Virus record (IMG/VR): IMGVR_UViG_3300045988_143356
Length of the DNA: 64,000 nt
From: a virus
Strand: one strand, 5' to 3'
How positions within the stretch are numbered: the stretch's first letter is position 1; every line of letters begins with the position of its first letter. Both the position numbers and the translations under genes were made by a program. The notes under the pieces are model-generated. The model had not been told where the DNA came from and searched no databases. It saw nothing but the letters and a program-made list of their open reading frames with translations. Positions 1-64,000 of the stretch are shown here, piece after piece.

Positions 1-212
1 CTGTATATATCGAGATACCGGCCCGATACTTGGCTATTCCACAAGCGCGAGTTATTTAAGTCGCGATAATCGTTCAGGATGTACTCCTCTGCCTCATCGA
101 CCGTATTGAAGTGACCCACGAAATGATCTCCGAGAGCGCGGTCAAAGACCGAATAGTAGATAGCCCCGTTCAGGGCTCTCTCTTTAATAAATTCAAATCG
201 AGTTGTTATCAT
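1..212 (-). CDS. hypothetical protein (N-terminal part; ORF runs off the window start)
   Basis: ATG at 212 on minus strand, open to position 1 (MITTRFEFIKERALNG...); co-oriented with neighbours; absent from ORF track because no stop lies in the window. Confidence 0.4.
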   Translation of the reverse strand, partial: MITTRFEFIKERALNGAIYYSVFDRALGDHFVGHFNTVDEAEEYILNDYRDLNNSRLWNSQVSGRYLDIY

Positions 213-280
213 GATTTTGTTAGTTAGTGTTTTTTCGAGCCGTGGGGAGGCTTCGATCCTCCCCGAACCCCAAGGCACGG

Positions 281-553
281 CTATTGGTACCTCCGGACAA
301 TTTTAATACATTTGCCGGAGTTGGAGATTATTCGCACGTTGTCGTAAAACCTCCTATAATTCGCGAGGATAGTTTGAGCCTCGCACACAGCCTCGTATTT
401 AACCATACCTTTGGCCACGGCCGTAGCCAAAAAGTTTCCGAGCCATCTATTATCCAGATCGAAAAACATCTCTTGGCTGGTGACCAGGAAATTCGACACC
501 TTCAGGGTCAACTCCCCATTATTGAGGGATTTGTCGGAAATTCTAATTCTCAT
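281..553 (-). CDS. hypothetical protein
   Basis: 90-aa ORF with ATG start, co-oriented with adjacent small genes; no motif recognised. Confidence 0.55.
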   Translation of the reverse strand: MRIRISDKSLNNGELTLKVSNFLVTSQEMFFDLDNRWLGNFLATAVAKGMVKYEAVCEAQTILANYRRFYDNVRIISNSGKCIKIVRRYQ

Positions 554-577
554 AACTTTGTTTTTTTTTTAGCGATT

Positions 578-624
578 TGGGGCCTCGGGAGGGAGTCGAA
601 CCCTCCTGAACACCATGCGAGGCC
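578..624 (-). ncRNA. tRNA-like minihelix (acceptor stem + T-arm + encoded CCA, no D or anticodon arm)
   Basis: Minus strand GGCCTCG-CATGGTGTTCA-GGAGGG-TTCGACT-CCCTCC-CGAGGCC-CCA; 7-bp and 6-bp stems, canonical T-loop; intergenic between 633..980 and 281..553. Confidence 0.4.
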
Positions 625-632
625 AAGATTTT

Positions 633-980
633 TTAGCACCCCAACTCCTTGCAATGGCAATTCGAGGCTCGCCTGAGGTAGTCCAACGCACGGGCTGGAG
701 TCCAAGTCTCCCAAGCCCTGAACTCTTTCTCTCCGACCTCGTTTTTGACAAGGCGGCCGAGCACGCCCTCACGGTTGTAATTGTCATTGTGGAGGTGCTC
801 CACGATATAGCGAGGGTTGACATCATCAAGTCGGAGACCGTCAGCCTCCGCAAGTTGTTCAACCACCTCCCAATTATCCCTGATGGTTCGGAGGCAGCTG
901 CTGAGCGACTTGTGCTCCTTGTTGACGAGAGCGCGGAACTCCTTGAGCCCCTTTGCGCTAAAATTAAGTGTCTGTTTCAT
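633..980 (-). CDS. hypothetical protein
   Basis: 115-aa ORF, ATG at 980; flanked on both sides by tRNA-like elements; no motif recognised. Confidence 0.55.
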   Translation of the reverse strand: MKQTLNFSAKGLKEFRALVNKEHKSLSSCLRTIRDNWEVVEQLAEADGLRLDDVNPRYIVEHLHNDNYNREGVLGRLVKNEVGEKEFRAWETWTPARALDYLRRASNCHCKELGC

Positions 981-1011
981 ATTAAAACGATTTTAATTGT
1001 TAAAATTTTGA

Positions 1012-1069
1012 AAAAGCGAGGGGAATCGAACCCCCAAGGCATTATTAGCCCTATCCATCATTCGCTCCC
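1012..1069 (-). ncRNA. D-armless tRNA-like element
   Basis: Minus strand GGGAGCG-AATGATGGAT-AGGGC-TAATAAT-GCCTT-GGGGG-TTCGATT-CCCCT-CGCTTTT; acceptor stem needs 3 G-U pairs; canonical T-arm; loop lacks U33. Confidence 0.3.
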
Positions 1070-1356
1070 TTATATATGTCATCGGAGGCCTCCGCCTCCG
1101 CCCGTGTCATTTTGGCTGCTACTACTACTCCGCTCACGCCTCCTGACATCATGGCATACTGACAAATTGTCAGATTTTTCCGTGTGGCTCGGCCGACCCA
1201 AGAGCCTACTGACCAGCACGCAAAAAGCATTTCGCTAACAGGCATTTCACCCACGCACAGGCACAGCACTCCCCCACATCTCCGCACGGTACTCAATATT
1301 GTCAAAGAGCTGCCAACAGGAGGCATCTTCGGCGCCGTCCTTTTTTGTTGACAGTG

Positions 1357-1364
1357 CAAAGGTA
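1357..1364 (-). promoter_or_regulatory. candidate Bacteroidota-type -7 promoter box (TACCTTTG) for the leftward operon
   Basis: Matches TAnnTTTG on the minus strand, upstream of the 1069..281 gene/RNA string; position only, no transcript data. Confidence 0.3.
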
Positions 1365-1578
1365 CTGCAAATTTTTGTAATTGCAAAAAAAAAAGTGTAA
1401 TTTACCAAAATTTATAGTAAACAGGCCTCCTGGGTGTGTAGGTGGCATTTTATTTTTTACCAAACTTTGATTTTTGCCAAATGGGACACTCCTAAAGATT
1501 TTAGGATTTATCGCACCGTATATTTGCACACCTGTACGCACACGTATAAGCACACGAGGACAAAAAGATCATCGCCTT

Positions 1579-1594
1579 GCGCAAACGTTTGCGC
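1579..1594. promoter_or_regulatory. perfect 16-bp palindrome GCGCAAACGTTTGCGC (candidate operator)
   Basis: Exact dyad symmetry in the non-coding control region; further dyads at 1159-1173, 1690-1707, 1866-1882. Confidence 0.35.
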
Positions 1595-1884
1595 TTAGCT
1601 TCTAATGCAGGATCACCCCTTGAGTGGTGGTGTAGGTCATTTCGGGGGCGGAACGCGCTAAAATAGGCCTTAAAATGCTAAATCAAAAAGTTTCCACTTT
1701 TGGAAACCTAACTTATTGATTTTCAAGTAGTTACAAGATTCATTTCATCGTCTTTGGAGTGTAACAAATTGACTATCAAGGGGGTACGGGGGGTATTTAG
1801 GGCAAACGGCGGCGTGCGGTGGTGGGACCCAAAAAAATTTTTTTTACGATTTTCCGACCCTGCTTGTGCCAAAAAATGGCACAA

Positions 1885-2177
1885 TGTAGGAAATGAAGCC
1901 ATAAATCTCTATCGCATAAGAAATCACCTTGAACTACATTGGAGTAACTTATTGATTCAATGTGTATTGTGAAGATGTAGTGTAGTAATGTAGTTATATA
2001 CACGCATAACATTAAAAAAGTCTCCTGCGTATATATTATAGGAACGCACACAGACGAGAAAAATGTTAGAAATGCACTACACTAACTACACCAACTACAC
2101 TAAATGGTTTTAATTTGTTCAAAGAAAGTAAGTTGCGTTAGTGTAGTTTCAGTGTAGGGCAACTACACCGGACTACA
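1885..2177. repeat. iteron-like array of 12 TGTAG/CTACA pentamers
   Basis: TGTAG at 1885, 1976, 1981, 1989, 2142, 2153; CTACA at 1934, 2077, 2086, 2095, 2163, 2173. Three ACTACAC units are spaced exactly 9 nt apart (2076, 2085, 2094). Inverted pair GTGTAG-ggcaa-CTACAC at 2152-2168. Confidence 0.75.
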
Positions 2178-2376
2178 TTCCGGGAGTTTGGCGCGGTATT
2201 TGAAGGCTTGGGCGGGTCGTTATGATGATAGCGAAGGAAAGTCTTCGCCTCGGGCAGGAGGTCCTGCTTCTGGCGACGGGTCGGAGGGGCACGATAGACG
2301 CCCTCACGCAGACGAGCCTCGGCGTTCTGACCGGGGACGGCGAGTATGTGGTATGCGGCTACGGGGAGATAGGGGT

Positions 2377-2811
2377 ATGCGGCGGAAGAGGATAGAGGGC
2401 CGTTACGAGGTGACGGATGACGGCGTGGTGTGGTCCGGCGGGCTGCCTCTGCGCCCGGTCCGTGGCGTGTGGGTCTCGATAGGGGGCCGGCGGAGGCGTG
2501 TGGACTGGCTGGTGGCGCGCGCGTTCGTGCCGAACCCGGAGGGTCGGCCGTGCCTGGCGCACCTGAACGGCGACGTGCGCGACAGCCGGGCGGAGAACCT
2601 GGAGTGGCGCGAGGAGCCGCAGTCGTGGGCAAGGTCCGGGAGGCGTGCGAGTCCGAGGCCCGTGGGCGCGTGGGACAGGGCCGGGGACTCCGCGGGTGTC
2701 TGGGGCGGCGTGGTGGAGGCCGCGCGGGCGACGGGCCTGCGGGCGTCCGGGATAAGGTCGGCGGCGGACCGGAAGGGGAGCTGCGGGGGGCTGCTATGGA
2801 GATGGCTGTGA
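2377..2811 (+). CDS. HNH homing-type endonuclease (NUMOD4-like N-terminus + HNH_3-like core)
   Basis: IEGRYEVTDDGVVWS (NUMOD4-like), VARAFVPNPEGRPCLAHLNGDVRDSRAENLEW (HNH_3-like); ATG at 2377 chosen over the long upstream extension of track ORF 2188..2811. Confidence 0.7.
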   Translation: MRRKRIEGRYEVTDDGVVWSGGLPLRPVRGVWVSIGGRRRRVDWLVARAFVPNPEGRPCLAHLNGDVRDSRAENLEWREEPQSWARSGRRASPRPVGAWDRAGDSAGVWGGVVEAARATGLRASGIRSAADRKGSCGGLLWRWL

Positions 2812-3119
2812 CGGGCCGGACGCGGGCCGAGGCGCTCGCGCGGCTGAAGGAGCTGATGTGGCGTGAGGTGTGGCGGGACGAGGTGGAGCTCCCGGGCGTG
2901 GTTTACGAGGAGCCGGGGGGCGGCGTGGTCCGCGCCGGCGTGGATCTGGGGGTTTTCAAGGTGAAGGATGCTCCGGAGCGGATGTCGCCGGAGGATCTGG
3001 AGAGGGAGATAGCGGGTCTGACTGACAGGCTGGTGCGCTGCCGGCTGGCTTTGGACAGGAAGCGCGGGGACACGCCCGCCGGCGCGGCCGTGGAGTTTGC
3101 GGATTTGGTGAAAGATTGA
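2796..3119 (+). CDS. hypothetical protein
   Basis: ATG at 2796 within track ORF 2430..3119, 16-nt overlap with the HNH gene end; helical/charged sequence; GC-rich region so ORF evidence is weak. Confidence 0.4.
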   Translation: MEMAVTGRTRAEALARLKELMWREVWRDEVELPGVVYEEPGGGVVRAGVDLGVFKVKDAPERMSPEDLEREIAGLTDRLVRCRLALDRKRGDTPAGAAVEFADLVKD

Positions 3120-3296
3120 TATATTTGCGGGTCTAAAAGGGGTGGCCCGGTGCGAGCGGGGGTGCGGGCGGCGCACCCCGTCCTGGCAATGGCCGCGGAT
3201 GCGGCGGGAGGATGTCCCCGTGGAGGAATTTCGTCCTTCCGCCCGAGTGAGGGTACCTGGCGTAATTTTTCATAGCCCTATCCGCGGCAGCCGCTC

Positions 3297-3347
3297 CGGC
3301 GCGTCGGGATTTCAGGTCCCCGTGGGGTTCGAGTCCCCGCGCGCCGC
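3297..3347 (+). ncRNA. D-armless tRNA-like element with TCA in the anticodon position
   Basis: CGGCGCG-T-CGGGA-TTTCAGG-TCCC(C)G-TGGGG-TTCGAGT-CCCCG-CGCGCCG-C; perfect 7-bp acceptor stem, canonical T-loop, 7-nt loop with T33/TCA/G37; upstream of helicase ATG 3370. Confidence 0.4.
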
Positions 3348-3369
3348 TCGTTATGGAAAGGATTTTATC

Positions 3370-4821
3370 ATGGACTGGAGATTCATAGAGGACCGCCTCG
3401 TCGGGGTCCAGAAGCAGGCGGGCACGCTCGTCGGCCTGGGCGCGAGCGACGAGCGCGTGAACAAGCGGACGGAGGCCGGGCTGTGCAAGGTGTTCCGGCG
3501 TATGCTGTGCGGCGTGGAGGGCGACAGTCCCGGTGGGATGATGCTCGCCGACGAGGACGGGCAGCTTTACGGGTACAACGGCAGGTGGTACGAGCTGGTG
3601 ACGGAGGAGGCGCTGCTCGAGCTGGTGATCCGTGTGATGGAGCGTCTCGACGTGGGGATAGTTTACCAGACGGGTTCGGCGAAGGCGGCGCGCGACTACT
3701 GCGTGAACGCGCTTGTCGGGGATTCGCGGTGCAGGTTCGTGCCGGACCGGCGGTGGGTGTGCTTCACGAACGGGGTGTACGACGTGCGGGAGGGGCGGCT
3801 GCTGGGTTTCGGGCCGGAGTACGTGACGGACATGGTGATGGACTACGCGTTCGACGCGGAGGCGCGGTCGCGTCTGTGGGACAGTGTGCTGGCGCGGACG
3901 GTCCCGGATCCTGGGATGCGGGCGGCCTTCCGGCAGTTCTGCGGCTGCATGCTGGCGGACCGGCGGGAGTACACGATAGAGTACATCACGTTCGTGGTCG
4001 GCGAGGGGCAGAACGGCAAGAGCGTGATATGCAAGGCGGTGGTGAACACGCTGGGCAGGCGGGTGGCGAGCAGCTACAACCCGGAGCAGCTGTTCCGGAG
4101 CGCGCAGCGGGACTACCACCTTGCGGACGTGAACGGGAAGGTGGTGAACTACTGCGACGACGTGTCGAACAAGGACTTCTCCGGGGGGGACTTCAAGATG
4201 TTCGTGTCGGGGGCGCCGTTCACGGGGCGGCATCCGTACTCCAGGCGTCCGACAAGGGTGGACAAGGTGCCTCTGATGCTGTGCTGCGCGAACAAGATAC
4301 CGCCGACGACGGACGACTCGGAGGGGTATTTCAGAAGGTTCCTGGTCATATTGGCGCCGAACAGGGTCGATGACCGCGACAAGGACCCGCAGCTTGTGTC
4401 GAAGCTGGCTGCGCCGGATGTGAAGGCGGCGATATTCGACTGGATGCTGGAGGGGTACCGCGAGTTCGTGGCGAACGGGGGGAAGATAGACGTGCCGCAG
4501 TCTGTGCGGGATGTCGTGGAGGAGATGAAGGCGGGCGCGAACTCGCTGCGGAGGTGGCTGGACACGGAGGGCTATGTGGCGGCGGTCCCGCGGCAGAGGA
4601 GCGGCGAGGGCTGGCGGCCTTTGAAGGAGTGGGTGCAGGAGTACATCAACTATTGCAGGGACTGGGGCGAGGTGCCGAGGTCGAGGAGCTCGGTGACGGA
4701 CATGTTCGCGAAGATGGGCGCGGCGAAGGTCAGAAGGGGCGACGGGATGTGGTACTACCTGGAGCGGAGGGTGGAGCTTCCGGAGGAGGAAAAGGATGTG
4801 ATGGCGGATCTGCCTTTTTGA
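3370..4821 (+). CDS. D5/P4-family primase-helicase (SF3 NTPase)
   Basis: Walker A VVGEGQNGKSV, YCDDV (Walker B-like), FTGRHPYSRRP...LMLCCANKIPPTTDDSEGYFRRFLV typical of P4-type primase C-terminal domain; ATG 3370 preferred to track start 3142. Confidence 0.8.
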   Translation: MDWRFIEDRLVGVQKQAGTLVGLGASDERVNKRTEAGLCKVFRRMLCGVEGDSPGGMMLADEDGQLYGYNGRWYELVTEEALLELVIRVMERLDVGIVYQTGSAKAARDYCVNALVGDSRCRFVPDRRWVCFTNGVYDVREGRLLGFGPEYVTDMVMDYAFDAEARSRLWDSVLARTVPDPGMRAAFRQFCGCMLADRREYTIEYITFVVGEGQNGKSVICKAVVNTLGRRVASSYNPEQLFRSAQRDYHLADVNGKVVNYCDDVSNKDFSGGDFKMFVSGAPFTGRHPYSRRPTRVDKVPLMLCCANKIPPTTDDSEGYFRRFLVILAPNRVDDRDKDPQLVSKLAAPDVKAAIFDWMLEGYREFVANGGKIDVPQSVRDVVEEMKAGANSLRRWLDTEGYVAAVPRQRSGEGWRPLKEWVQEYINYCRDWGEVPRSRSSVTDMFAKMGAAKVRRGDGMWYYLERRVELPEEEKDVMADLPF

Positions 4822-4847
4822 ATTGTATGTTAAAAAATCAATAGGTT

Positions 4848-5366
4848 ATGAAAAAAAAGCAAATCAATGATGTGCCGGCGGATGTGTCGGCTAAGATGAA
4901 GGAGCTGGAGGAGCTCGCGGAGAGGTACGGGGTGTCGATGTTCGCAATGGCGTGCACAGGCGAGGTCTTGGCGCACTTCATGACCGGCGACTGGGCTCCG
5001 ATCGTGGTTGGGCTTGTGACGATGGGGCGGAGGTATGGTTCCGTCCGCGGCATTGTTTCCGCGGCGGCGCGCATCCTGAACGGGGACCTCACCGACGATT
5101 TCGAGAGGGTGACGCGGGAGATGCGCGGGACGTGGAAGGCGAAGAACGCCGACTACGGGAGCAGCTTCGACGACGGCGTGGACCGCTTCGGCCTCGTGTC
5201 GGCTGCGGTGCGTATATGCGACAAGGCGAACAGGTTCGCGAGCCTTGCCGACGGTAAGAAGGCCAATGTCAAGGGGGAGGCGTTGCGTGACACGCTTATG
5301 GACCTGGCGAATTACGCGGTGATGACGGTGATGCGTCTGGACCAAGACAAGAAAGGCGATGAGTAA
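4848..5366 (+). CDS. DUF1599-like helical protein (nucleotide-modification-associated family)
   Basis: WKAKNADYGSSFDD...GLVSAAVRICDKANRFASL...LRDTLMDLANYAVM resembles DUF1599 as remembered; pattern-based only. Confidence 0.5.
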   Translation: MKKKQINDVPADVSAKMKELEELAERYGVSMFAMACTGEVLAHFMTGDWAPIVVGLVTMGRRYGSVRGIVSAAARILNGDLTDDFERVTREMRGTWKAKNADYGSSFDDGVDRFGLVSAAVRICDKANRFASLADGKKANVKGEALRDTLMDLANYAVMTVMRLDQDKKGDE

Positions 5367-6297
5367 GGACGGTTTCAGGTTCGACTACGATCCTCTGGCG
5401 GCCTTGGCGAACTGTCCGAAGCTGCTGGGGATGGAGCTTGTGCCGAGGGGTAACGGTCTCCAGGGCGGGTATTACCTGAACGGGGACAGGCATCCGTACC
5501 GCAGGGACAAGCTCAAGGTCTTCGTGGGCCGGGGCAGCGTGTGGGTCAGCGAGGAGGGCGGCAGGTGCGTGTCCCTCACGCAGTGGCTTCGCGAGTTCGG
5601 CGGGGCGGAGACCTACCGCGACGCGGTGCGGATGATCAACGGCGAGCCCCAGTCGGTGGACTGGAACCGGGAGTTCCGGAGGATAGTGTCGCCGGATGTG
5701 AAGTACGTGCCGAAGGATGTCCTTGAGGCGGCGAGGGCGTATGACCTCGGAAGGTGCCCTCTTTTCCGCTGGATGTGCGGGCTTTTCCCGGAGGCGGATG
5801 TCCGCGGGGTGTGGGGGCGTTACAACGTGACCACGGACTCGAAGGGGAACGCCGTTTTCTGGTTCACGGACTCGGCCGGGCGGGTGCTGTTCGACAAGCG
5901 CATGGCGTACGGCGAGGACGGGCACCGGCTGAGGGACTTCTTCCCCGGCAGGAAGTACCGTGTCGGCGACGGGTACACGGGGAGGTGCTATTTCGGGGCG
6001 CATCTGGTCGATCAGGGGCGCAAGGTCTATGTCTGCGAGAGCGAGAAGACGTGCCTTCTGGTCGCGCTGGCCTATCCGGGTCGCCAGTGCGTGGCGACGG
6101 GCGGCAAGGGCAACCTGCGGGACGTGGACGCCAACACAGTGCTGCTTCCGGACATGGACGCGAGGTTTGAATGGCAGGAGAAAGGCGAGATATGGCCCTG
6201 GTGGGAGAAGTGGGGAGTCAAGGAAATCCCGGATAAAGGCGACATCGGGGACATGATAGTCTGGAAAAGGGTTCGTGACTTGAACGTAAAAGGTTAA
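5359..6297 (+). CDS. Toprim-domain primase-like protein
   Basis: VYVCESEKTCLLVA (Toprim Glu) and LLPDMDA (DxD) motifs; follows the helicase module. Confidence 0.55.
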   Translation: MSKDGFRFDYDPLAALANCPKLLGMELVPRGNGLQGGYYLNGDRHPYRRDKLKVFVGRGSVWVSEEGGRCVSLTQWLREFGGAETYRDAVRMINGEPQSVDWNREFRRIVSPDVKYVPKDVLEAARAYDLGRCPLFRWMCGLFPEADVRGVWGRYNVTTDSKGNAVFWFTDSAGRVLFDKRMAYGEDGHRLRDFFPGRKYRVGDGYTGRCYFGAHLVDQGRKVYVCESEKTCLLVALAYPGRQCVATGGKGNLRDVDANTVLLPDMDARFEWQEKGEIWPWWEKWGVKEIPDKGDIGDMIVWKRVRDLNVKG

Positions 6298-40456: not shown

Positions 40457-40472
40457 GACTGTCATAAGGTGG

Positions 40473-40490
40473 GAGGGGGCAAAACCCCTC
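40473..40490 (+). terminator. weak terminator-like hairpin between fibre genes
   Basis: GAGGGG-GCAAAA-CCCCTC followed by a poor T-tract. Confidence 0.3.
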
Positions 40491-40526
40491 TCATCTTCTA
40501 ATTTATTCTAAAAAAACAGAATCATC

Positions 40527-57936: not shown

Positions 57937-58263
57937 TTATTGCTGCACTTTGAATTGTTCGTATCCTTCGAGAAATAGTGCACGGGCTACATCTTTTTTC
58001 CATTCCTCAAAATTTCCATATTTTTCTCCGTTACTCGAATAGTGATACCTGTATTTTGATCCACAACCAGGACATTCAAAACACAGAAAATACCCATTTT
58101 CAGTAACACAATATCCCACAATACCTTCTCGATATGCTGATCGATGTGTAAAATGGTAGTTACAGTTATCACATGCACATGACTTATTGTACCTATATTC
58201 CTCGTAGTTGAGGATTTCCGGTAAATTCCATTCTCCTTTACCAAATTCGTGTCTGAAAATCAT
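57937..58263 (-). CDS. zinc-ribbon-like hypothetical protein
   Basis: CACDNCNYHF…CPGCGSKY. Confidence 0.5.
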   Translation of the reverse strand: MIFRHEFGKGEWNLPEILNYEEYRYNKSCACDNCNYHFTHRSAYREGIVGYCVTENGYFLCFECPGCGSKYRYHYSSNGEKYGNFEEWKKDVARALFLEGYEQFKVQQ

Positions 58264-58496
58264 CTTCTTGAGCTAAATTGGTTCTTCATTGCTTTTCTGA
58301 ATCTAATCTCAAAGTCATCAAACCAAGATATTCCTATCTCTTCCTTTTGATGCTTGAACCACTCGACGGCTTTTTCTATCAATTCGGATTGCATCCACTC
58401 TGAACCTGCAATGAACGCTTCTTCTATTTCAGTTGGAACATAATCTTGCGAACCTATATTAGATTCATATTCTTTTGCTTTTTCTTCGATACTCAT
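58260..58496 (-). CDS. hypothetical protein
   Basis: 78-aa ORF, 4-nt overlap with the next gene. Confidence 0.5.
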   Translation of the reverse strand: MSIEEKAKEYESNIGSQDYVPTEIEEAFIAGSEWMQSELIEKAVEWFKHQKEEIGISWFDDFEIRFRKAMKNQFSSRR

Positions 58497-58498
58497 AA

Positions 58499-58690
58499 CT
58501 ATTTCTTTCTTTTCGGTTTATAATTATCGCATATAGTCTGTCTTGGATTATTGCAAGGCCCGATACCAAACAATTTGCAAGACTTACAGATTTTCTTCTC
58601 TGATTTTCTTAATTGATATGATGGTATCTTCTTGAAATTGAAATCAGTAGGTTCGACCCCAAAAAGTTGAATTGGTGAATATCTTGACAT
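58499..58690 (-). CDS. small Cys-containing protein
   Basis: 63-aa ORF, CKSCKLFGIGPCNN. Confidence 0.45.
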   Translation of the reverse strand: MSRYSPIQLFGVEPTDFNFKKIPSYQLRKSEKKICKSCKLFGIGPCNNPRQTICDNYKPKRKK

Positions 58691-58692
58691 AA

Positions 58693-58929
58693 CTATTGTA
58701 TTGGTTCATCCGTATCACCATCCCATACATTACCATCATTGGTATATATGTTATCATCATCACCGTAATGCCAACATTTTGGACAGTAATGTTTTCCCCC
58801 AAGTGTACGCCACGAATTATCGTCTGCTACCTCTTTTGCTCCCTCTGGGTCAGCACACCACGACGAATCATCTGCCAATGTTTTACAGCAATCGCATTCA
58901 ATATTGTAAAAATATTCTTTTATTAACAT
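58693..58929 (-). CDS. small zinc-ribbon-like protein
   Basis: 78-aa ORF, CDCCKTL…CPKCWHY. Confidence 0.45.
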   Translation of the reverse strand: MLIKEYFYNIECDCCKTLADDSSWCADPEGAKEVADDNSWRTLGGKHYCPKCWHYGDDDNIYTNDGNVWDGDTDEPIQ

Positions 58930-58931
58930 AA

Positions 58932-59159
58932 CTATTTCTTTTTAAGTTCTTTAATAAGTGCATCTGCAACCTCTACTGCTTCCTTTGTGCAATTTTCTGG
59001 AGAAAGAGTCTTATATATTCTGTTGGGATTTGAATACCATGCTATAAGCACATCTTTTGCAATTTCATACCTGCGCTGATCCCAGTCGATTTCCTTTGAT
59101 TGGGCTTCACGGAAATATCTTGTCGCCGATTCCAAGAACGTTTGTTCAAGATCTGTCAT
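58932..59159 (-). CDS. hypothetical protein
   Basis: ATG 59159 (MTDLEQTF…) gives an ATGA junction with the upstream gene; the track start 59228 would overlap it by 73 nt. Confidence 0.45.
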   Translation of the reverse strand: MTDLEQTFLESATRYFREAQSKEIDWDQRRYEIAKDVLIAWYSNPNRIYKTLSPENCTKEAVEVADALIKELKKK

Positions 59160-59413
59160 AATCCAAATATTTTTCTGATTATCAAGTAAATCAACCATAA
59201 TATAGACGCAACGAGAAAGAGTGGCCAAAGTATAATCATCATCCTAACACCTTGCGTATTTGTGTGCCAAGCTGGATCAGGAGGATACTTTTCGAGCAAA
59301 AGCGGTTTTATTGAATAACCCCATTTGAGAAGCGTTAACTCCGTCTTTTCCCAAGCCGAAGCGACAATGGCACCTATGAATATGTAGCCAAGAATAATTA
59401 GTATAATCTTCAT
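59156..59413 (-). CDS. small membrane protein
   Basis: Two hydrophobic helices (IILIILGYIFIGAIVA, MMIILWPLFLVASILWLIYLI). Confidence 0.5.
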   Translation of the reverse strand: MKIILIILGYIFIGAIVASAWEKTELTLLKWGYSIKPLLLEKYPPDPAWHTNTQGVRMMIILWPLFLVASILWLIYLIIRKIFGL

Positions 59414-59808
59414 TTTAATTCTTCTTCAAGAACTAATCCACCTTTCAATACATGTTGTTGCATCAATGGAGATAGTTTTATCATCTGCTCATAAGTAGGT
59501 CTTACCCAGTTGTGCAACTTAGCGCCAGAAATAAACTCCAATTTAAGCCATTCCGTATAAGAGATGGTCGTTTTATGTAACATTATCGCTGCTTTACAGA
59601 AACGGCACCCAATCGTAAATGGGGTTACACCTTTTGCTGTATATTGTGTATAAAAACTCTTGCCGCATTTCTCGCAGATATAAACATCCACGCCAGTGCC
59701 TCTGCCGTCAAATATACGGGCAGTTTCAATGTCTTTAAGCATCTGGTCGTACTTTTTCTTTAATTCTTCCATAGAATTATATTTTTTAATAGCTATTCCT
59801 CCCACCAT
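59410..59808 (-). CDS. zinc-ribbon-like hypothetical protein
   Basis: CEKCGKSF…CRFCKAA. Confidence 0.5.
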   Translation of the reverse strand: MVGGIAIKKYNSMEELKKKYDQMLKDIETARIFDGRGTGVDVYICEKCGKSFYTQYTAKGVTPFTIGCRFCKAAIMLHKTTISYTEWLKLEFISGAKLHNWVRPTYEQMIKLSPLMQQHVLKGGLVLEEELK

Positions 59809-60245
59809 TTATAGTACTTCGGAGCATCATCGTTTGTGCCTACAAGATGAGCGGTTTTGTCGTTGTAAGGGATTTGTTGTTTCCACATTCCAGTATGGGA
59901 AAATACCGCAGCTACCCACCAAGAAGCATCATAATCTCTTACCAATACCTTATCAAATGGCTTCAACGTCTCAGGGTCAAAACGCTCCTTCTTTGGCTTG
60001 AATGTACTCCAGTCACGGTTGTCCTTTGAGGGAAATAACAAGCATTCATCGCCTAATTCGCTGATTGCCCCATTAGGGAAGAATGTCTTATTGCAAATTA
60101 TATTGGCAGTCCCTACATAATTGACAGTCACAAATTTATCGACAACCGAATATAAACTACAAACACCATAAAGTGGTGTGTACAGCTTCGTCCCTTTCGG
60201 GCTGTCTTTCAGAATCTCGCAGAGATTCAGTTCTTTATTTTCCAT
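59793..60245 (-). CDS. hypothetical protein
   Basis: 150-aa ORF. Confidence 0.5.
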   Translation of the reverse strand: MENKELNLCEILKDSPKGTKLYTPLYGVCSLYSVVDKFVTVNYVGTANIICNKTFFPNGAISELGDECLLFPSKDNRDWSTFKPKKERFDPETLKPFDKVLVRDYDASWWVAAVFSHTGMWKQQIPYNDKTAHLVGTNDDAPKYYKWWEE

Positions 60246-61292: not shown

Positions 61293-62021
61293 TCATAGCT
61301 CCAGCCCGTATTCCATGGCCACCTGCCTGATGACATCGCCGCCGTAGTCGCCCGCGGTCTCCGTAAGGAACGTCCTCAGGGTGATGCTGTCAGTAGGATT
61401 GTACCCGTGTTCCTCGCACCACTGCCTCCTTCCGAACTCGCAGGAGCCTGTCAATATGTGATGCCAGTCGAACAGGTCGCCATACTCCTCATCCAATGCC
61501 GGGTGGGTCTTCGCGAACTCCGCTATCCTCTCGTCCAGCGGCCTGTTCTTCCTCCACTTGGCCTCGACCGCCTCGACCGCCTCGTGGAGCGTGTTACTGT
61601 GGGCGAAGAAGTTCCCTCGCTTGGCTATCCAGCAGTCCCTCAACGTCAAATCCCTGCACAGAACCGCGCCCTTGGCGACATTGCCACGCAAGTCATAGAT
61701 AAGTGTCAACACTCCGTCGATGTCATAGACCTTGCGGCCGTTGAACTCCTTGATGCCGTCACCGTCACCGGAACCGGAACCGTAACCGTAACCGTCACCG
61801 TCACCGTCACCGTCACCGGAACCGGAACCGGAACCGGAACCGGAACCGGAACCGTAACCGTCACCGTCACCGGAACCGGAACCGGAACCGTCACCGTCAC
61901 CGTCACCGTCACCGTCACCGGAACCGGAACCGGAACCGTAACCGTCACCGTCACCGGAACCGGAACCGGAACCGGAACTTATGGCAAGGAACCGCTCGAT
62001 ATCCTTTTCTATCGCTTCCAT
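61293..62021 (-). CDS. protein with a long (GS/GD/GY)n low-complexity linker
   Basis: MEAIEKDIERFLAISSGSGSGSGDGDGYGSGS… about 75 aa of dipeptide repeats followed by a 150-aa globular part. Confidence 0.55.
   Translation of the reverse strand: MEAIEKDIERFLAISSGSGSGSGDGDGYGSGSGSGDGDGDGDGDGSGSGSGDGDGYGSGSGSGSGSGSGDGDGDGDGYGYGSGSGDGDGIKEFNGRKVYDIDGVLTLIYDLRGNVAKGAVLCRDLTLRDCWIAKRGNFFAHSNTLHEAVEAVEAKWRKNRPLDERIAEFAKTHPALDEEYGDLFDWHHILTGSCEFGRRQWCEEHGYNPTDSITLRTFLTETAGDYGGDVIRQVAMEYGLEL
61755..61978. repeat. in-frame hexanucleotide microsatellite (ACCGTC/ACCGGA/ACCGTA)n
   Basis: About 37 consecutive 6-nt units on the plus strand; encodes GD/GS/GY on the minus strand. Confidence 0.9.
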
Positions 62022-62314
62022 TCCTTCTTCGCCTCGATGTTAGCTATTGCCTTGTAAGAGCAAGGTATGATCTGGACAACGTTGGCGACTACCAGCGACG
62101 GCACGGCCACCGTGATCTTGCTGTTGTCGTTGCAACCTTCCTGCGAAAGCTGCTCCACGGCCGCGGCCCCGTCCCAGTACCACACCTTGCGGGCGTTGGC
62201 AAGACGGACGTTCAGCCCGTTGGCGTCGCCTGAAACCTCTTCGACCTCGCCGAAGAAGACCCCGGCGCCATAGCATCTCACGATGCACTTTTTTCCGCTG
62301 TAATTTTCCATCAT
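62009..62314 (-). CDS. hypothetical protein
   Basis: 101-aa ORF. Confidence 0.5.
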   Translation of the reverse strand: MMENYSGKKCIVRCYGAGVFFGEVEEVSGDANGLNVRLANARKVWYWDGAAAVEQLSQEGCNDNSKITVAVPSLVVANVVQIIPCSYKAIANIEAKKEWKR

Positions 62315-62350
62315 CTTTAATCATTAAAAGTTAAACAATCTGTATAAACT

Positions 62351-62453
62351 TGGCCCGGAGCGCGGAGTCGAACCGCCTTTTGTCAAAATCATCAATTTGT
62401 GTTTTTAGCATCGCTACGTATTCCCGCGTCCCCGTGGACGCTTTCTCTCCTGG
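62351..62453 (-). ncRNA. tRNA-like element with 6-bp/4-nt D-type hairpin and canonical T-loop (weak model)
   Basis: CCAGGAG-AGAAA-GCGTCC-ACGG-GGACGC-(49 nt)-GCGG-TTCGACT-CCGC-G-CTCCGGG-CCA; acceptor 6 of 7 pairs; no convincing anticodon arm. Confidence 0.3.
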
Positions 62454-62528
62454 CTTTTCGCGCGTCACCGCGCTACTTGGGTTGGAAGGTAACTCCTGGG
62501 CTACCTTGTCCTCGCTTGCGAGGCTTCG

Positions 62529-62640
62529 CTCCACGGTGAGGAATCGAACCTCACTGTCGTCCTACGCTTTGAATGAAGTGTGTCTTTTCGGGGCGTCTTC
62601 ATTCATTGTGCCGGAAACGCCATATTCCGGCCTTCGTGGA
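62529..62640 (-). ncRNA. expanded cloverleaf tRNA-like element (112 nt)
   Basis: TCCACGA-AG-GCCGGAA-TATGGCGT-TTCCGGC-ACAA-TGAATGAAG-(18-nt loop)-CTTCATTCA-(16 nt)-TGAGG-TTCGATT-CCTCA-CCGTGGA-G; four-way junction, GG in the D-type loop. Confidence 0.4.
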
Positions 62641-62654
62641 GTTTTGCCGTCTCC

Positions 62655-62909
62655 CTAAACGGTATATTCCCAGTTCGTCATTGCTGGCGGATCATCGTCC
62701 TCTATCGAATCCGACATAAAGACAACCATGTCCACTGTGACACCTACAAAATCCATGCCTTTGTAGTCATCGAAGCGGTAGTCCAGGACAAGTTTCCTTG
62801 CCTCCGCCGCGTCATTTGCCCAACAGTCGCACTCTATCGGCCTGTTGTAAACCTCGCCATTCCAGTCCTCGTGCTGGACAGTGGCGCAAACTTTGAATAA
62901 CTTAATCAT
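62655..62909 (-). CDS. hypothetical protein
   Basis: 84-aa ORF ending 14 nt before the tRNA-like element. Confidence 0.5.
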   Translation of the reverse strand: MIKLFKVCATVQHEDWNGEVYNRPIECDCWANDAAEARKLVLDYRFDDYKGMDFVGVTVDMVVFMSDSIEDDDPPAMTNWEYTV

Positions 62910-63932: not shown

Positions 63933-64000
63933 ATTACCTTCTTGCCAGCAAATCATCAAGATATGCCAAAAACATTATTATCAACATTATTTGTCCCTTC

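Follow-up and report, generated by a model that had tools for sequence, protein, structure and literature searches.

What are the abridged transfer RNA (tRNA)-like sequences that punctuate the small genes of an uncultured phage? This question is raised by IMG/VR record IMGVR_UViG_3300045988_143356, a 64,000-nucleotide (nt) stretch of DNA (here called the window) from an uncultured Bacteroidales phage, in which an earlier note had pointed out two truncated minus-strand elements, at 624 to 578 (element 1) and 1069 to 1012 (element 2), each combining an acceptor stem with a canonical T arm. Both sequences are exactly as noted, including the encoded CCA and the A10 run of element 1, and both are intergenic and sense to 633..980(−) and 281..553(−). 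In all, the window holds six tRNA-like structures (TLS), every one of them intergenic and sense to its flanking genes, with ends that lie 23 to 38 nt before the next start codon. We favor, with a probability of roughly one half, the reading that these elements would be phage counterparts of the t-elements of plant mitochondria, read by ribonuclease (RNase) P and a 3′ tRNA nuclease. Among the roles that the earlier note had listed, processing signals of the RNase P/Z type would fit best, while mimics for CCA addition and decoys are still conceivable.

The elements are not due to chance. The T-arm motif GGTTCGANTCC occurs five times in the window versus 0.15 times expected, and none of 100 dinucleotide shuffles reached five. 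A purpose-written scanner, which looks for a T-loop hairpin with an adjoining acceptor helix, returned five sites, four of them scoring at least 13.7 and the fifth 11.96, while shuffles yielded 0.13 sites per genome at a score of 12 or more. The earlier count of five T arms leaves out a sixth element, at 282 to 238, with the loop ATCGAAG. The folds drawn for elements 1 and 2 coincided with the RNAfold minimum free energy structures, at −22.7 and −20.2 kcal/mol, respectively. The further statement that none of the T arms sits in a complete cloverleaf holds for canonical cloverleaves only, since the sequences 62641 to 62529 and 62454 to 62353 are closed, multi-arm, and cloverleaf-like.

TLS-1 (1011..1070, minus strand; element 2) ends a leader of about 300 nt and runs A(−1)-GGGAGCG, a 10-nt GG linker plus a small hairpin, GGGGG-TTCGATT-CCCCT, and CGCTTTT-U73, with the tail CAAA at 1010-1007 and an ATG 30 nt on. 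TLS-2 (581..624, minus strand; element 1) begins 8 nt downstream of the 633..980 stop codon and leaves 27 nt to the ATG of 281..553; it is composed of GGCCTCG, the linker CATGGTGTTCA, GGAGGG-TTCGACT-CCCTCC, and CGAGGCC, followed by CCAA at 580-577. TLS-3 (238..282, minus strand), which is the element absent from the earlier note, shares its first two bases with the TAG stop of 281..553, of which they are the AG, and reads AGCCGTG, the linker CCTTGGGGTTCG, GGGAGG-ATCGAAG-CCTCCC, and CACGGCT, with the tail CGAA. On the plus strand, TLS-R (3297..3346) occupies the leader of the primase/helicase gene in the rightward operon, with the ATG 23 nt on; its parts are CGGCGCGT, an 18- to 19-nt GG-containing linker, (T)GGGG-TTCGAGT-CCCC(G), and GCGCGCCG, its tail is CTCG, and its RNAfold z score is −3.1. 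The two cloverleaf-like elements are on the minus strand. TLS-4 (62529..62641; z = −4.3, 0/200 shuffles) has the acceptor CTCCACG/CGTGGAG, a 7-bp hairpin, a 9-bp hairpin with an 18-nt loop, the T arm GTGAGG-TTCGATT-CCTCAC, and the tail CGAA. TLS-5 (62353..62454), the proximal element upstream of the DUF6948 gene, has the acceptor GCCAGGAG/CTCCGGGC, a D-like hairpin (GCGTCC-ACGG-GGACGC), an A-rich segment of about 55 nt, the T arm GCGG-TTCGACT-CCGC, and the tail CAAG.

What stays constant among these elements is a core composed of an acceptor/T stack of 12 bp, which together with a −1:73 pair makes 13 layers, a canonical T-loop, and a C74-N-A-A 3′ flank. Within the T-loop, G53, T54, C56, A58, and C61 are invariant in 19 orthologs, and the 13-layer stack is found in most real elements versus 9.7% of random scanner matches. 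The body of the element comes in four variants. It can be missing altogether, so that the hairpin is continuous, with a purine·purine mismatch where the two stems meet; it can be a linker of about 11 to 21 nt in which GG lies two to five bases from the start, like that of a D-loop or of the tRNA-like domain of transfer-messenger RNA (tmRNA); it can be a linker plus a small hairpin; or it can be a D-like hairpin plus a long aberrant hairpin. Most linkers contain GG and are D-loop-like. Both the D stem and the anticodon arm are dispensable, being missing, shortened, or replaced. Outside the T-loop, paralogous elements have almost no sequence in common.

The flanks were compared across 34 elements. 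A C follows at +1 in 31 of the 34, an A at +3 in 29 and at +4 in 25, while position 75 is variable; the base just 5′ of the element is U or A in 31. Such a C-N-A-A tail is found at 1.5% of random scanner matches. The CCA encoded by element 1 is present as noted, yet it is one case of C-N-A and not a conserved CCA, only C74 and A76 being kept across the elements. For reference, we used a set of 32 genuine tRNA genes from the Bacteroides phages BI-TP1 and crAss001 and from a relative of the window phage, L009, which were called by ARAGORN and whose acceptor ends were located. These genes have U(−1) in 25 of 32 cases, a pairable −1:73 in 22, and C74 in 31; position 75 is A or T, with C in 3/32 only, and thus they do not encode CCA. 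By the ends of genuine tRNAs, therefore, the 13th layer of the elements is a −1:73 pair on a 12-bp stack, and the C conserved after them is C74. We had also considered a separate stack of 13 bp, like that of tRNA-Sec, and replaced this view, as real tRNA genes show the 13th layer to be the common −1:73 pairing. The elements copy a precursor tRNA (pre-tRNA), flanks included, and pre-tRNA-like flanks are to be expected if enzymes acting on pre-tRNA ends read the elements. Separately, the lone C74 is conserved in tRNA genes that lack CCA (L060, 27226-28068; L061, which is crAss001, 1682-5807; L009, 4754-4840), which suggests a particular 3′-end maturation route in these hosts.

The same ends bear on whether the elements are intrinsic terminators or attenuators made of a GC-rich hairpin and a U run, as the end of element 2 in the window, ...CCCCTCGCTTTTT, might lead one to believe. 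Element 1, however, precedes CCAAATCGCT and A10, not U, and orthologs of element 2 end in GCCCTTT, CGCTCTC, CCAACCA, or GGCCCGTA and then continue with C-N-A-A, so that the U run is unconserved. A terminator would need neither a T-loop nor an acceptor stem, and we consider this explanation very improbable.

To follow the elements in relatives (numbered L001 onward), we gathered relatives of the 115-amino-acid, primase, and DUF6948 genes from IMG/VR, JGI/ENA metagenomes, and Logan assemblies. Exactly one T-loop motif is present within 160 nt upstream of the orthologs of the 115-amino-acid gene in 18/18 distinct loci (50 to 95% protein identity), with the T-loop 40 to 77 nt before the called ATG. 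These 18 loci and the relative L006 gave 19 TLS-1 sequences, which were cut to a 13+7+13-nt core. Paired cells amounted to 92.7%, compared to 54.9% when shuffled, and double-change cells to 83, compared to 28.5; the covariation score was 0.927, versus 0.20 in shuffles and 0.16 to 0.24 in slid controls, where pairing was used to locate the 5′ acceptor strand in eight linker-type sequences, the loop being the only anchor for the T stem and for the eleven continuous hairpins. For TLS-5, MAFFT and RNAalifold applied to 13 relatives independently predicted the acceptor, the D-like hairpin, and the T arm; 97.4% of the cells are paired, and there are 32 double-change cells, compared to 10.6 in shuffles and 0 to 1 in slid controls, with double changes in 8 pairs. 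The conservation with compensatory changes in related phages for which the earlier note had asked is thus found in TLS-1 and TLS-5, both of which keep pairing through double changes. The ortholog of TLS-2 in L001 and L017, AGCCCCG..GTGCCGG-(T/A)TCGTTT-CCGGCAC-GGGGCT, differs from the window in two acceptor pairs and nearly the whole T stem, and every pair is kept by double changes, in a comparison of three sequence variants only; a scan of IMG/VR with the gene-2 protein gave no pattern match and hence no more TLS-2 variants. TLS-3 is near-identical in L001, L015, L017, and L063, and its exact sequence is found in three IMG/VR contigs only. TLS-R is kept in L001, L003, L004, and L017, with GAGGG/CCCTT, so that the comparisons of TLS-2, TLS-3, and TLS-R cover two to three variants. 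Relatives of TLS-4 have CTCCCCG/CGGGGAG and varied T stems.

The region that holds TLS-4 and TLS-5 has further structure. Between the two elements, at 62455-62528(−), the window has three small hairpins, GCCTCGCAAGCGAGG, GGTAGCCCAGGAGTTACC, and GCGCGGTGACGCGC, the last of which has compensatory variants in relatives, GCGGCGTGAGCCGC and GCGGTGCGAATCGC. A middle tRNA-like element that is absent from the window lies about 230 to 240 nt upstream of the DUF6948 gene in L041, L052, L053, and L056; it is an 8/5 stack, GGGCGCGG..GGGGG-TTCGATT-CCCTC-CCGCGCCC, with the tail CAAG and with compensatory variants in L053 and L056. The number of tandem elements varies from one to three among close relatives.

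The compensatory changes, the sense-strand specificity, and flanks like those of genuine Bacteroidales-phage tRNA genes strongly support functional tRNA mimics over relics. Relics would be decaying tRNA genes or tRNA fragments left by attP-type integration, without a function. Integration commonly leaves tRNA fragments, and such a fragment, identical to a host tRNA and next to an integrase, is the 3′ part of the tRNA only, with the T arm and one acceptor strand (PMC9897764). Real tRNAs do lie near elements in relatives, and the elements probably descend from phage tRNA genes. Nonetheless, both acceptor strands are present and covary, pairing survives dozens of double substitutions down to 50% protein identity, and the element is present in all 19 orthologous leaders. 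Moreover, the 115-amino-acid gene has no relative in 185,579 bacterial and archaeal genomes, and the only recombinase among the window proteins scanned with PHROG or Pfam is a small resolvase-type serine recombinase, with no tyrosine integrase. We therefore reject relics of integration, and functionless leftovers of any kind are highly unlikely.

As to probable descent from phage tRNA genes, real tRNAs and intermediates stand at equivalent sites in relatives: L009 has a tRNA-Ser beside an element upstream of its primase gene, and L006 has an intermediate form, whose D arm is canonical and which contains a long, aberrant hairpin insert. The tRNA genes of crAss001 are interleaved with open reading frames (ORFs). 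Rfam scans of five relatives at gathering score returned only two real tRNAs. In crAss001 we also noted a 96-nt tRNA-like sequence between tRNA-Lys and tRNA-Phe, at 4140-4235(+), which has neither an annotation nor an ARAGORN call; it reads TGGGTACA..63 nt..GGGAG-TTCGAGT-CTCTC-TGTGCCCA and may be an intron-containing or aberrant tRNA.

On which molecule does the fold act? Among the TLS-1 orthologs, G·U pairs outnumber A·C combinations by 27 to 2, and thus the fold is selected on the transcribed sense strand. This speaks against sites that work as DNA, namely, cruciforms or hairpins for replication priming, recombination, or packaging, which could be proposed since one element adjoins the primase gene and iteron-like repeats are near (1960-2200). 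The complementary strand would fold worse (82.6% paired versus 92.7%), all six elements are sense to the adjacent genes on either strand, and the T-loop sequence is strand specific. We regard a role at the DNA level as extremely improbable.

We then asked to which known class of RNA the elements belong. ARAGORN called no tRNA or tmRNA gene in the window, and no Rfam match reached the gathering score. The best sub-threshold Rfam matches were tRNA-Sec, at 1011-1070 (23.1 bits; threshold, 47), with the D and anticodon arms deleted in the alignment, and mascRNA, at 3298-3345 (20.4 bits; threshold, 42.5). Scans by E value gave only sub-threshold matches to tRNA-Sec, mascRNA, and chrB-a, or none, and at 62200-62800 there was no match even at an E value of ≤10. 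A canonical tRNA, with a four-arm cloverleaf and a 7-nt anticodon loop on a 5-bp stem, was found by neither ARAGORN nor Rfam; the elements do have the 12-bp coaxial acceptor/T stack of tRNAs and their T-loop pattern (G53, T54, Y55, C56, R57, A58, and C61). tmRNA was rejected, as ARAGORN was negative and neither G3:U70 nor CCA is conserved, and an alanine identity of element 2 based on G3:U70 was dropped because L015 has G3-C70. Bacterial Y RNA (YrlA), in which a tRNA-like domain is attached to a Ro60-binding helix, was likewise set aside, with no Rfam match at an E value of ≤10 in 1-4000 or 62200-62800. Of the features that mark t-elements and mascRNA-type RNAs, a noncanonical fold, a conserved T arm, the sense orientation, and a place within a longer transcript by messenger RNA (mRNA) ends are present. 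A covariance model built on the 33-nt core (R1) recovered only the five T arms, as local matches, because the variable linker breaks the model; it gave no new members and missed TLS-3.

A minihelix made of acceptor and T arm is all that RNase P, RNase Z, and CCA-adding enzymes need as a substrate. We infer that such enzymes bind and cut the elements, with an effect on the transcripts, as follows. Host RNase P would cut at the 5′ edge of an element, and the 3′ tRNA-maturation nuclease, RNase Z or an equivalent, would cut after position 73 or 74. These cuts would detach the leader of about 300 nt, part the first cistrons from each other, and leave the downstream genes with short (23- to 38-nt) A/U-rich leaders, which would suit translation initiation in Bacteroidota; they would also free tRNA-like RNAs of 45 to 113 nt.

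The model for this proposal is the t-element. It was with the same GGTTCRANYCC motif that t-elements were detected in plant mitochondria, where RNase P and RNase Z cut them and so create mRNA ends; some of these cuts fall inside reading frames, and some remove stop codons (PMC1920247). Like them, the phage elements have a noncanonical fold around a conserved GGTTCRANYCC T arm, stand on the sense strand beside protein genes, and are found in 5′ leaders and at 3′ ends, where some of them reach into a reading frame's last bases. Unlike them, the phage elements belong to a double-stranded DNA (dsDNA) Bacteroidales phage and not to an organelle, and many of them have shrunk to a bare acceptor/T minihelix or to one continuous hairpin of 13 layers; they have a conserved C74-N-A-A flank and form arrays of up to three. 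Cleavage is demonstrated in plants, whereas here it is proposed from the likeness.

Several points weigh against processing by tRNA enzymes. Elements 1 and 2 have z scores of −2.2 and −1.5, so that the comparison of RNAfold energies with shuffles suggested in the earlier note came out only modestly in favor and thermodynamics alone is only weakly unusual, and the Rfam models of the tRNA clan stay far under threshold. No tRNA-processing, ligase, or nucleotidyltransferase domain was found among about 26 window proteins in PHROG and Pfam scans. The elements are confined to the first ∼4 kb of the leftward operon and one rightward leader; they do not stand at every gene junction and therefore do not make up a genome-wide punctuation system. 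Ribosomes in the act of terminating would open up the acceptor stems of TLS-2 and TLS-3, and the continuous-hairpin variants have no D-loop surrogate inside the element. TLS-3 starts inside the TAG stop of 281..553, so that a cut by RNase P would give a nonstop mRNA, which in bacteria should trigger tmRNA tagging. The same stop-codon situation exists in plant nad6 and ccmC. Finally, the nearest cultured relatives are without such elements: PF672P1 (45 kb), BI-TP1 (41 kb), and crAss001 (50 kb), 136 kb in total, have real tRNAs only and no truncated element, and the known range of the elements does not so far extend beyond this uncultured phage group.

A processing step could also serve another end. 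An excised t-element can persist as a small RNA (PMC1920247). The phage elements might mainly make trans-acting, tRNA-like small RNAs, maybe CCA-tailed, that titrate a host factor gripping the acceptor/T arm and the 3′ tail, with punctuation as a by-product; candidate targets are a tRNA-directed immune nuclease or toxin and a tRNA-binding enzyme. In keeping with this, both early operons have the elements in the part that is expressed first, up to three in tandem, and conservation is limited to the acceptor/T half and the 3′ flank. On the other hand, CCA is not encoded and position 75 is variable, the searched literature contained no defense countered by such an RNA, and the processing step of our preferred explanation would still be required. 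We hold this possibility, which agrees with the data, to be unlikely. A more specific version, in which excised elements, trimmed and CCA-added, act as anticodon-less “dummy tRNAs” and are decoys for immunity factors that recognize the acceptor, T arm, and 3′ tail, is quite doubtful; tail-cleaving nucleases such as Cas12a3 and toxins that modify the acceptor end would be candidate targets.

The elements might instead act in cis without tRNA enzymes, either as nut-like sites that modify RNA polymerase, for which the 115-amino-acid product is one candidate binder, or as hairpins that protect or insulate mRNA ends, for which the T-loop would be only a stable cap. There is one element per divergent early leader, with others after early genes, much as for lambda nutL and nutR; the leader is followed by a conserved gene of unknown function whose product is well folded; and leader repeats, TGAACGGCTT in distant relatives and TGACA in the window, suggest protein binding. 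Neither version would need a tRNA-exact T-loop pattern, a stack of tRNA length, or the C74-type flank of genuine tRNA genes, and since paralogs share almost no sequence outside the T-loop, a host enzyme that reads shape fits better than a sequence-specific protein. Cis-acting sites of this sort are thus a poor prospect in our estimate, and we keep to processing by RNase P and a 3′ nuclease as the preferred reading.

The leaders of distant relatives deserve a description of their own. In L002, L020 to L022, L026, L028, L031, L032, and L036, the 500 nt upstream of the 115-amino-acid homolog contain five to seven copies of TGAACGGCTT in the leader, the last of them 0 to 6 nt before the T-loop hairpin; in L009 the motif sits within the element linker. 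L036 has the module GTGCAAAGCAAT..GYGAACGGCTT..hairpin in duplicate, on both sides of the gene. At the element 1 position, L020, L026, L030, and others have a different conserved hairpin, with the loop GGGTGAAAC or GGGTAACTATACC.

Other known systems are instructive in part. The mascRNA of MEN-beta (RF01684), the model whose best window match is TLS-R, is likewise a tRNA-like element within a longer transcript, and RNase P and RNase Z define the 3′ end of the upstream RNA and release a small tRNA-like RNA; unlike the phage elements, mascRNA is eukaryotic and nuclear and forms a cloverleaf with a short anticodon arm, and there is no homology. The tRNA-like domain of tmRNA shares with the elements the acceptor, the T arm, and a D-loop surrogate without a D stem, and in tmRNA the rest of the molecule is inserted at the position of the anticodon arm; the phage elements have no tag reading frame, pseudoknots, conserved G3:U70, or encoded CCA. 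With the tRNA genes of crAss001 and BI-TP1 they share the T-loop, the 12-bp stack, U(−1), the tendency to pair −1:73, C74 without CCA, and a location between small ORFs, but having no anticodon arm or aberrant arms they cannot decode, and neither ARAGORN nor Rfam recognizes them. RNase P also has non-tRNA substrates, such as the precursor of the P1/P7 C4 antisense RNA, phi80 M3 RNA, and intercistronic operon sites, in which the host enzyme cuts acceptor-like helices of phage or operon transcripts. To our knowledge, those substrates have neither a canonical T arm with a 12-bp ruler nor pre-tRNA flanks, and they are single sites, not a conserved family.

The genome around the elements is that of a tailed phage, with terminase, portal, major head protein, P4-type primase/helicase, and small serine recombinase genes. 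No relative was detected at the DNA level among 50,697 deposited phage genomes (blastn against INPHARED with window 1-2000), and the nearest cultured phages by terminase are the Parabacteroides phages PF672P1 and PF672P2, at 37% identity. Promoter-like TTTG-N19-TAnnTTTG motifs, compared with the published consensus, would fit a host in the Bacteroidota. A minus-strand run of small genes starts near 1350, exits the window at base 1, and reenters at 64000. In L047 and L049, the homolog of gene 281..553 directly precedes the region upstream of gene 62009..62314, and the window is thus a circular permutation of one leftward early operon. That operon begins with the conserved untranslated leader of about 300 nt (981..1364, minus strand) that ends in TLS-1, preceded by a promoter-like TTTG (1387-1384), N19, and TACCTTTG (1364-1357), which by the TTTG/TAnnTTTG consensus would be a promoter of the Bacteroidota type. 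The leader (981-1350, minus strand, and in L001 and L015 to L017) is conserved in blocks even in distant relatives, such as AGCGAAATGCT and GCTCTTTGACAA, and in the window it has repeats of TGACA and the palindrome TGACAATTTGTCA; upstream of TLS-1, it may itself be a structured RNA or a regulator-binding region.

Gene 1 of the operon (633..980, minus strand; 115 amino acids) is conserved and served as the anchor for collecting orthologous TLS-1 and TLS-2. Its product has 32 invariant residues among 18 homologs and an AlphaFold2 model with a predicted local distance difference test (pLDDT) score of 88. There was no PDB fold match at an E value of <1, no Pfam or PHROG family, and no clue to RNA binding, nor was there a match among phages by tblastn. 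Gene 2 (281..553, minus strand; 90 amino acids) lies between TLS-2 and TLS-3, the primase/helicase gene (3370..4821, plus strand) is directly downstream of TLS-R, and the DUF6948 gene (62009..62314, minus strand) is downstream of TLS-5.

Other features of the window were noted in passing. The 1.3-kb noncoding gap of the divergent early operons has dense ACTACA(C)/GTGTAGT repeats in both orientations (1960-2200, plus strand), an iteron-like array that may be a replication origin or an operator array. The ORF 61293-62021(−) contains a long low-complexity stretch in which (GS)n(GD)n recurs with perfect periodicity, encoded by GGTTCC/GGTGAC repeats. A perfect palindromic hairpin between two long plus-strand genes (40466-40497), scored on both strands by the hairpin model, is a probable terminator with no relation to the tRNA-like family. 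The G+C content is 46% at 1-2000 and 63 to 66% at 2000-6000 and falls to 37% near 58000-60000, a strongly mosaic composition for one phage genome.

Full-text literature searches gave no description of anticodon-less tRNA mimics in phage operons, and Rfam has no matching family. A large survey of structured RNAs in phages (PMC10690425) goes no further than generic “tRNA or tRNA-like” candidates, all overlapping with calls by ARAGORN. tRNA-like processing signals are a known kind of element; what appears to be new is that they occur in a dsDNA Bacteroidales phage, are extremely reduced, form arrays, and have a defined pre-tRNA flank. Standard annotation by ARAGORN and Rfam overlooks the elements entirely.

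Action in trans would make the elements a new class of anti-defense RNA in phages, and as dummy tRNAs they would protect the real tRNA pool in early infection, an RNA-based anti-defense strategy that is so far undescribed. The family would also offer 33- to 45-nt processing tags for synthetic operons in gut Bacteroides and a handle on tRNA 3′-end formation in the Bacteroidales, whose phage tRNA genes encode C74 and not CCA. It may be taken as a natural definition of the minimal substrate of RNase P and the 3′ nuclease in Bacteroidota: a 12-bp ruler, a T-loop, a −1:73 pair, and C74. If tRNA-maturation enzymes do cut the elements, minimal pre-tRNA mimics would tailor early mRNAs in a phylum without Shine-Dalgarno-driven initiation, and this phage group would have reached independently the “tRNA punctuation” and t-element logic of organelles.

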